Source of the DNA: a plasmid
DNA: 41,714 bases
Reading direction: 5' to 3' (one strand)
Assembly: GCF_055900595.2 (NCBI RefSeq)
Contig: NZ_JBVWEU010000004.1
In this document: positions 10,782 to 11,412 of the stretch, in pieces
Position numbering within the stretch: position 1 is the first letter of the stretch
Layout: each line of letters opens with the position of its first letter
Made by a program: the position numbers and the translations under genes
Notes under the pieces: model-generated
Seen by the model: the letters and a program-made list of their open reading frames with translations, nothing else
Databases searched by the model: none
What the model was told of the DNA's origin: nothing

Positions 10782-11168
10782 TCAGAATTTTTTGTTGAAC
10801 TTCTTAGGGTCGAAATTCTCACCGATTTTCTTGAAGAATTCTTTATCAATAATGCCGGGACTCTCTGCTTTTTTACTTTCCTGCACTTCAGGCTCAGACG
10901 GTTGTGTATTGTGCAATACACTTTCCGCTGCACCCTTCGCGCTACTCTTATCATGCGTATTGTGCAATACATTTTTTCGGTTTTGCCGCGTTCTATACAG
11001 TGCCATCTCAAGCCCTTTGGCTGTTACCGAAAAGCTGTATTCGCTGTCGAGGATTTCAGCAATTTCATGCCGCGTTAGCCCTCTGTCCAGCCAGTTCTCG
11101 ATTTCATTTAGGCGCAATCTGACAGCAGCCGATAAGTTGCGGGGTTTCAGATCTGCTGGTTTATTCAT
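10782..11168 (-). CDS. Hypothetical small DNA-binding protein (predicted N-terminal HTH, lysine-rich tail)
   Basis: 128 aa; segment WLDRGLTRHEIAEIL looks like a helix-turn-helix; the phased repeat array lies directly upstream; function not recognised. Confidence 0.55.
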   Translation of the reverse strand: MNKPADLKPRNLSAAVRLRLNEIENWLDRGLTRHEIAEILDSEYSFSVTAKGLEMALYRTRQNRKNVLHNTHDKSSAKGAAESVLHNTQPSEPEVQESKKAESPGIIDKEFFKKIGENFDPKKFNKKF

Positions 11169-11229
11169 AACCCCCTCCGTTGTATGAAAATGACTCTACA
11201 ACACTCGTAAGAAGGGGTCAATCGAGTTT

Positions 11230-11380
11230 TGTAGTTTATCTGTAGTTTTATTGTAGTCTATTTGTAGTCTGTCACGTTTTTTGTAGTTTATTTGTAGTTT
11301 TATTGTAGTCTATTTGTAGTCTTACAACACTAAGGCAAAACGTTTTTTGTAGTTTATCTGTAGTTTATCTGTAGTTTTTG
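11230..11380. repeat. Eleven TGTAGT(T/C)T direct repeats at 11-bp phasing in three clusters (4+4+3); candidate centromere-like or operator array
   Basis: Repeat starts at 11230, 11241, 11252, 11263; 11282, 11293, 11304, 11315; 11348, 11359, 11370; the first two clusters are near-identical 44-bp blocks. Confidence 0.7.
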
Positions 11381-11388
11381 GTTGCTCA

Positions 11389-11412
11389 GATGGTCATGCA
11401 AGCATGACCATC
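11389..11412. repeat. 24-bp perfect palindrome GATGGTCATGC-AA-GCATGACCATC
   Basis: Seen directly; lies between the repeat array and an AT-rich tract. Confidence 0.5.

Follow-up and report, generated by a model that had tools for sequence, protein, structure and literature searches.

A probable IncN backbone remnant with stbA, its direct-repeat array and oriT between two IS903B elements of an IncR plasmid

The 41,714-nucleotide stretch of plasmid DNA analysed here (the window) contains a 1,018-bp segment, at positions 10699–11716, which is very probably a remnant of an IncN plasmid backbone, consisting of an StbA module and a complete oriT enclosed by two IS903B elements on an IncR plasmid. 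The segment is collinear with the IncN backbone in alignments with two intact conjugative IncN plasmids, R46 and R388 also being examined, and the module, judged from its sequence, is a member of the StbA/stbS family joined to the IncN MOBF oriT, both of which are already known. An initial annotation of this DNA had presented the repeats and the gene beside them as a candidate centromere-like module and implied that it was new. The repeats belong to a known element, and the implied novelty is unsupported because identical DNA is named stbA in most plasmid records among the matches listed and the arrangement 'dIS903B, stbA, IS903B, drepB, IS1X3' has been published on an IncR KPC/NDM plasmid (PMC11792461). 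The segment and its boundaries comprise the following features, in order along the window.

9642–10698, plus strand: complete IS903B (1,057 bp), the left boundary, placed by its inverted-repeat positions, with the transposase ORF at 9674–10642.
10699–10773, minus strand: stbB' remnant, the first 25 codons, cut by IS903B, recognised by comparison with intact StbB.
10782–11168, minus strand: intact stbA, 128 aa plus stop, encoding an HTH domain (residues ~11–70), a disordered linker in which VLHNT occurs twice, and a C-terminal tail that is conserved.
11193–11221, minus strand: promoter-like site for stbA, with -35 TTGACC (11221–11216), a 17-nt spacer and -10 TAGAGT (11198–11193).
11230–11273, plus strand: putative stbDR cluster I, four 11-bp units, TGTAGTTT twice and then TGTAGTCT twice.
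11282–11325, plus strand: putative stbDR cluster II, four 11-bp units, offset by 8 bp from the phase of cluster I.
11348–11380, plus strand: putative stbDR cluster III, three 11-bp units, TGTAGTTT three times, in phase with cluster II.
11389–11412, no strand assigned: inverted repeat GATGGTCATGC-AA-GCATGACCATC (11+2+11) with perfect 11-nt arms.
11489–11535, minus strand: putative IncN oriT core, 47 bp, with hairpin AGCGTGATTTATCACGCT (11515–11532), then GCGT TAG GTGT and, across the predicted nick, ATAGCAGGTTAAGGG.
11536–11716, plus strand: distal AT-rich oriT and traK upstream region, ending at the traK ATG (11714–11716).
11717–11981, plus strand: first ~265 bp of a second IS903B copy, the right boundary, cut by a TnAs1-family Tn3-like transposase fragment.

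On sequence evidence, the 128-aa gene is stbA of the IncN type. A family and structure search of its product, which the initial annotation had recommended, recovered the NCBIfam equivalog NF041290 (StbA_2) at 204.1 bits against a cut-off of 100, with residues 7–128 aligned to profile positions 1–123 of 123, and PF28167 (StbA-like) is carried by 118 of the 120 homologues listed; a Pfam-A scan of the protein with a library that does not include PF28167 returned only a non-significant Clr5 match. Compared pairwise, the protein is a distant relative of R388 StbA, with 30% identity over 57 residues (E 7e-5). When a profile built from IncN StbA only was compared with solved structures, the best match was 7PC1, the DNA-binding domain of R388 StbA, over the whole domain (E 7e-4), and this family profile was required to reach it: the single 128-aa sequence, searched against the PDB, matched nothing but bS20, and that spuriously, through its low-complexity linker, and Foldseek against the PDB did not recover 7PC1. 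The N-terminal segment, described as HTH-like from the outset and encoded downstream of the array as then reported, is a three-helix HTH homologous to residues 1–75 of R388 StbA (7PC1). In the AlphaFold model residues 11–60 are helical (pLDDT 94–97) and lead into a long helix that ends at residue 73, after which come a disordered linker (74–104) and a short C-terminal helix. To our knowledge, R388 StbA is the sole StbA to have been characterised experimentally, and the searchable literature yielded nothing on binding by IncN StbA or on GTAGT-type repeats.

Across homologues the linker holds about 1 to 4 (S)VLHNT(Q/H) peptide repeats, and protein length ranges from 111 to 150 aa. The window stbA has two VLHNT copies (10908–10925 and 10957–10975), each coded by the near-palindromic GTATTGTGCAATACA, and the variation in copy number looks like slippage in a disordered linker.

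The stbA start codon lies 62 bp from the first repeat, with the array upstream of the gene, and the promoter-like site, a pattern match from a consensus scan, abuts the first repeat, so placed that the array begins 9 bp upstream of the predicted -35. A terminator scan gave one weak match inside stbA, at chance level, and an Rfam scan of 10600–11800 at a permissive threshold found no RNA family.

The window contains 12 occurrences of the motif TGTAGTYT, where shuffling gives an expectation of 1.28, and none of 100 shuffles reached 12. Eleven TGTAGT(T/C)T copies lie on the plus strand at 11230–11377 in clusters of four, four and three, starting at 11230, 11241, 11252 and 11263, at 11282, 11293, 11304 and 11315, and at 11348, 11359 and 11370, in the stretch and the clusters given by the initial annotation. 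Spacing within the clusters is exactly 11 bp, which is also the period returned by TRF, and clusters II and III, 33 bp apart, share a register from which cluster I departs. Clusters I and II are 98% identical as 44-nt blocks, while cluster III has three units in the window against four in an intact relative, CP149583. The four-unit blocks show a 2+2 sub-pattern (TTT, TTT, TCT, TCT) which, we infer, fits binding by pairs of dimers. The 11-bp period, the arrangement in at least two blocks and the position at the predicted stbA promoter together make up the array architecture of the StbA/stbS system, and in all six loci compared the repeats have a single orientation and an 11-bp period, with none on the opposite strand. 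A search for secondary StbA operators found no GTAGT pair at 11-bp spacing elsewhere in the window on either strand.

The sequence TACAACACT is present twice, at 11197–11205 (over the predicted stbA -10) and at 11323–11331 (between clusters II and III), and includes the reverse complement of TGTTGTA, a repeat variant of the R46 array. Either coincidence or a further type of operator could account for it.

By alignment, the repeats together with the inverted repeat and the AT-rich tract are the IncN oriT, which the initial annotation had not recognised. Of the elements that it had described beside the array, the AT-rich tract was confirmed (24–25% G+C at 11550–11699), and the 24-bp 'perfect palindrome' at 11389–11412 held up as far as its two arms are concerned but not at its centre, where AA is not self-complementary. 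The oriT core is near-invariant (40-bp blocks 95–98%) among the window, CP149583, CP098218, R46 and a recombinant locus (L008), and is collinear with the R388 nic region, in which GCGCACCGAAAGGTGCGTATTGTCT is followed across the nick by ATAGCCCAG; ATAGC follows the predicted nick in both. It also fits the layout of the pCU1 oriT, which has been subdivided into hairpin, TAG, pentanucleotide and post-nic segments (PMC2943615). We place the predicted nick of the minus strand near 11503/11504, a position that rests on the alignment with the R388 nic region; with a relaxase hairpin followed by the nick sequence so placed, and the stb side predicted to be transferred first, the region has the organisation of a MOBF-type IncN nic region. 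A further inverted repeat, GTATTACC..GGTAATAC, lies in the distal oriT (11579–11595 / 11636–11652).

On the array side of the predicted nick, CCCTTAACCT is directly repeated at 11442–11451 and 11489–11498, 47 bp apart. This repeat is conserved in all aligned IncN-type loci and may be a site for an accessory relaxosome protein.

IncR records with the fragment are typed as 'mobilizable' with no relaxase listed. The complete IncN oriT offers a likely reason, and such typing would follow if an oriT is what the typing software recognises there.

The left IS903B is annotated as such in identical records and ends at 10698, 84 bp past the stbA stop codon, as had been described. It follows codon 25 of stbB, and the stbB remnant reads MKVAVINYSGSVRKTLISSYLLAPR; in it the Walker A motif GSVGKT of intact IncN StbB has become GSVRKT (G13R). 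On the right, the break-point lies directly after the traK ATG (CTGAATG in the alignment with intact IncN plasmids). Both IS903B copies have the same orientation, and no 9-bp target duplications were found around either copy or around the pair, in the window or in CP119515; the junctions therefore arose by deletion or IS–IS recombination, not simple insertion. For the same lack of target duplications, nothing suggests that the unit moved as a composite transposon. A lone 18-bp IS903-like terminal repeat occurs at 37444–37461.

In intact IncN plasmids including R46, stbA-stbB-stbC is divergent from traK, the coupling-protein gene (traJ) and the MobF relaxase gene (traI), with the array between, and stbB starts 8 bp after stbA and encodes a ParA/MinD-like Walker ATPase (NF041292). 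The window retains only the stbB start and the traK ATG of this synteny, having lost, to IS903B, stbB and stbC on one side and traK, traJ and traI on the other. Comparison with relatives free of the IS903 interruption, which the initial annotation had also proposed, found stbB and then stbC downstream of stbA and bears out its suggestion that IS903 had removed a motor NTPase gene; its statement that no NTPase gene follows is correct for an intact gene, but the first 25 stbB codons remain at 10699–10773.

The left flank of the remnant is IncR backbone, with umuCD, ParA/ParB and a replication protein, and the right flank is a multiresistance region. On the IncR backbone that encodes the replication initiation protein, a 37-bp unit is repeated in 9.5 tandem copies (92% matches) at 8800–9150; these units, presumably the IncR iterons, give long spurious ORFs on both strands. 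Among PLSDB records, 1,132 contain at least 80% of the fragment, most copies being at least 99% identical. A second orphan architecture, in IncR and IncFIA/IncR plasmids (L004, L010, L011 and L012), has IS26 or IS1 at its boundaries and comprises a 63-aa stbB remnant, stbA and oriT. Its DNA is 96–98% identical to that of the window fragment, and the form bounded by IS903B may derive from it, or it may have been truncated independently.

It is possible, if on balance doubtful, that the fragment, rightly identified as IncN stbA-stbS-oriT, is an inert scar, useless to the IncR plasmid and persisting between IS elements of a successful resistance region. The host backbone is itself provided with parAB and a replication system, stbB, stbC and all tra genes are gone, and the stbB remnant carries the Walker A substitution. 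Frameshifted stbA variants exist in databases (P0094, P0099, P0111 and P0116), so that some copies decay, and, with most copies at least 99% identical, recent clonal spread, not selection, may explain how many there are. Set against this are the intact stbA of the window, whose product is identical over residues 1–94 to that of a conjugative IncN plasmid, the completeness of the promoter-like site, the three repeat clusters and the nic hairpin, and the fact that at least two truncation architectures (IS903B/IS903B; IS26 or IS1) have lost both neighbours and retain precisely stbA, the array and oriT.

Within the IncN backbone to which we assign the remnant, the partner of the repeats can be traced through two natural types. 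The GTAGT type is found in conjugative IncN plasmids, for example CP149583 and CP098218, and R46 has 13 TGATGTA/TGTTGTA repeats. Between CP149583 and R46, TraK is 99% and StbB 96% identical, whereas StbA is 51% identical, its N-terminal domain having diverged and its C-terminal tail being conserved; the same division is seen between the window StbA and that of R46 (50% identical). DNA identity between the window and R46 falls to 38–70% only across 10979–11418, which takes in the N-domain codons, promoter, array and inverted repeat, and is mostly 88–98% outside this stretch, with one 78% block in the stbA linker. The inverted repeat at 11389–11412, inside the swapped cassette, reads GATGGTCATGCAAGCATGACCATC in the window type and GGTATTCATGCAAGCATGAATACC in the R46 type (~20295–20318 in R46, L006; ~1335–1358 in L008), with palindromy kept by compensatory changes in the arms; R388 has an unrelated palindrome at the corresponding position (L007, ~16265–16290). 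In a recombinant (P0107/L008), an R46-like N-domain is combined with a window-like C-tail and has R46-like repeats alongside. The array tracks StbA's DNA-binding domain, not TraK, StbB or the StbA tail. Since the repeats change together with the N-domain across six loci, against a constant TraK and StbB, they are best assigned to StbA. This swap, which defines two types within IncN, is the one modestly new item of the analysis; it lends comparative support to the pairing of protein and site and supplies two natural specificity types for experiments, while leaving the picture of how the system works unchanged.

The same comparison makes it very unlikely that the repeats play a chiefly architectural part in oriT (as bent DNA, or as sites for TraK or a host factor) rather than being StbA sites, as TraK is almost unchanged between plasmids with wholly different repeats and the StbA N-domain alone varies with the array. 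The array does lie inside the stbA–traK intergenic region that constitutes oriT, and phased T-rich units could bend DNA. A 1987 paper on the R46 oriT reportedly described 13 direct 11-bp repeats required for efficient transfer, the number also counted in R46 here. The equivalent R388 repeats are, however, bound by StbA in vitro (PMC3098194), and the two roles are not exclusive, repeat-bound StbA controlling the use of oriT.

A type II (ParR/parC) or type III (TubR/tubC) centromere that has lost an actin- or tubulin-like motor gene would likewise show some ten direct repeats, one helical turn apart and grouped into two or three blocks, upstream of a gene for a small DNA-binding protein, but the gene content of intact relatives refutes both readings: the next gene in every one of them is stbB (NF041292; PMC3098194), not ParM or TubZ, and the StbB ATPase is dispensable for R388 stability (PMC3098194). 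The protein is an StbA equivalog with an HTH rather than an RHH fold, and the pair that marks type II ParMRC, an RHH ParR and an actin-like ParM, is not found in the window or, for the partner, in any relative. The analogy with type II parC/ParR drawn at first is thus set aside, and that with StbA-type arrays, named beside it, is kept. Iterons of a replication origin are excluded by context, for although direct repeats beside an AT-rich tract look superficially alike, neither the remnant nor the intact IncN plasmids have a rep gene next to the array (in R46, repA lies ~11 kb off), the plasmid has its own presumed 37-bp iterons on the adjoining IncR backbone, and 11-bp units are shorter than typical iterons (17–22 bp).

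For the StbA/stbS reading, the most likely mechanism is proposed by analogy with R388. StbA of the window would bind the eleven stbDRs, as a centromere-like stbS, through its N-terminal three-helix HTH. R388 StbA has a solved N-terminal HTH structure, binds cooperatively to adjacent repeats and directs NTPase-independent segregation (bioRxiv 10.1101/2022.04.29.490116), and the 11-bp period is argued to put copies on the same helix face (bioRxiv 10.1101/2022.04.29.490116); here too, binding would be cooperative on neighbouring repeats, with roughly two repeats to each dimer and all copies facing the same side of the helix. The stbDRs of R388 lie around the stbA promoter, where StbA represses its own gene (PMC3098194; bioRxiv 10.1101/2022.04.29.490116), and the nucleoprotein complex in the window may similarly repress the adjacent stbA promoter. 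The R388 repeats that StbA binds in vitro mediate both of its in vivo effects (PMC3098194). The first is stability, which requires stbA and the stbDRs, stbB being needed only for conjugation (PMC3098194), and StbA with the repeats gives nucleoid-associated positioning without a plasmid NTPase (PMC3098194; bioRxiv 10.1101/2022.04.29.490116). By the same route, the complex would keep copies of the present plasmid spread over the nucleoid, with segregation independent of a plasmid-encoded NTPase. The term 'partner-less' in the initial annotation is therefore apt in that stbB has been deleted, but the state need not be a mere accident, as R388 StbA and its repeats stabilise the plasmid without a plasmid-encoded NTPase (PMC3098194; bioRxiv 10.1101/2022.04.29.490116). 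The second effect is on conjugation: R388 StbA inhibits it unless the ParA/MinD-like StbB is present, and without StbB it is abolished (PMC3098194; bioRxiv 10.1101/2022.04.29.490116). The window complex would correspondingly hold oriT in a conjugation-poor state unless relieved by StbB.

With stbB, stbC, traK, traJ and traI lost, what remains would be an oriT that can be mobilised in trans, its nic hairpin being intact, and an autonomous StbA/stbS unit. The host has its own ParA/ParB, so the module may add nothing to stability here. As R388 StbA abolishes conjugation when StbB is missing, the orphan StbA might hinder mobilisation unless a helper supplies StbB.

The practical value of these results lies in correct annotation: a 1-kb piece of many IncR and IncFIA/IncR resistance plasmids is an IncN StbA unit with a complete IncN oriT, rather than an unknown centromere. 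They also lead to the prediction that a co-resident IncN plasmid could move these plasmids. A stronger reading, which we put forward tentatively and regard as unlikely, is that the orphan stbA-stbS-oriT is a selected, self-sufficient cassette for stability and hitch-hiking, and that the N-domain/repeat swap marks separate StbA specificity or incompatibility groups in IncN. If so, the cassette would give non-conjugative IncR resistance plasmids NTPase-free tethering to the nucleoid and mobilisation by IncN helpers, and the GTAGT and TGATGTA types would offer natural material for working out the recognition code used by this centromere-binding family.

Among known systems, StbA/stbS of the IncW plasmid R388 (Guynet et al. 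2011; Quebre et al. 2022; PDB 7PC1) has a like gene order, with stbA-stbB-stbC divergent from the relaxosome operon, and its 11-bp-period TGCATCAT repeats, palindrome and nic hairpin follow one another as in the window. Both have single-orientation repeat blocks around or just upstream of the stbA promoter and a two-domain StbA with a three-helix HTH. They differ in repeat sequence (TGTAGTYT in the window, TTGCATCAT in R388), in block structure (4+4+3 against 5+5) and in StbA itself, where identity is ~30% in the N-domain only and the C-terminal domain is unrelated; unlike R388, the window is without stbB and stbC, and its module stands on a foreign IncR replicon.

The stbABC-oriT region of the IncN plasmids R46, pKM101 and pCU1 represents a backbone in common with the window, the nic region being identical or nearly so and the StbA C-tail shared, and the 25 retained stbB codons match R46 stbB but for one substitution. 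The direct 11-bp repeats of R46 occupy the same position as those of the window, with TGATGTA/TGTTGTA in place of GTAGT. Similar oriT layouts of R388 and R46 are said to have been described in 1991.

The type II ParR/parC (pB171, pSK41) and type III TubR/tubC systems also place blocks of direct repeats, spaced by about one turn, upstream of the gene for a small autoregulating centromere-binding protein, and a resemblance to parC and tubC has been pointed out by the StbA authors (PMC3098194 / bioRxiv 10.1101/2022.04.29.490116). ParR is an RHH and TubR a winged-HTH protein, each with an obligatory ParM or TubZ motor, whereas StbA confers stability without a plasmid NTPase, as found in R388, and its array lies within oriT.
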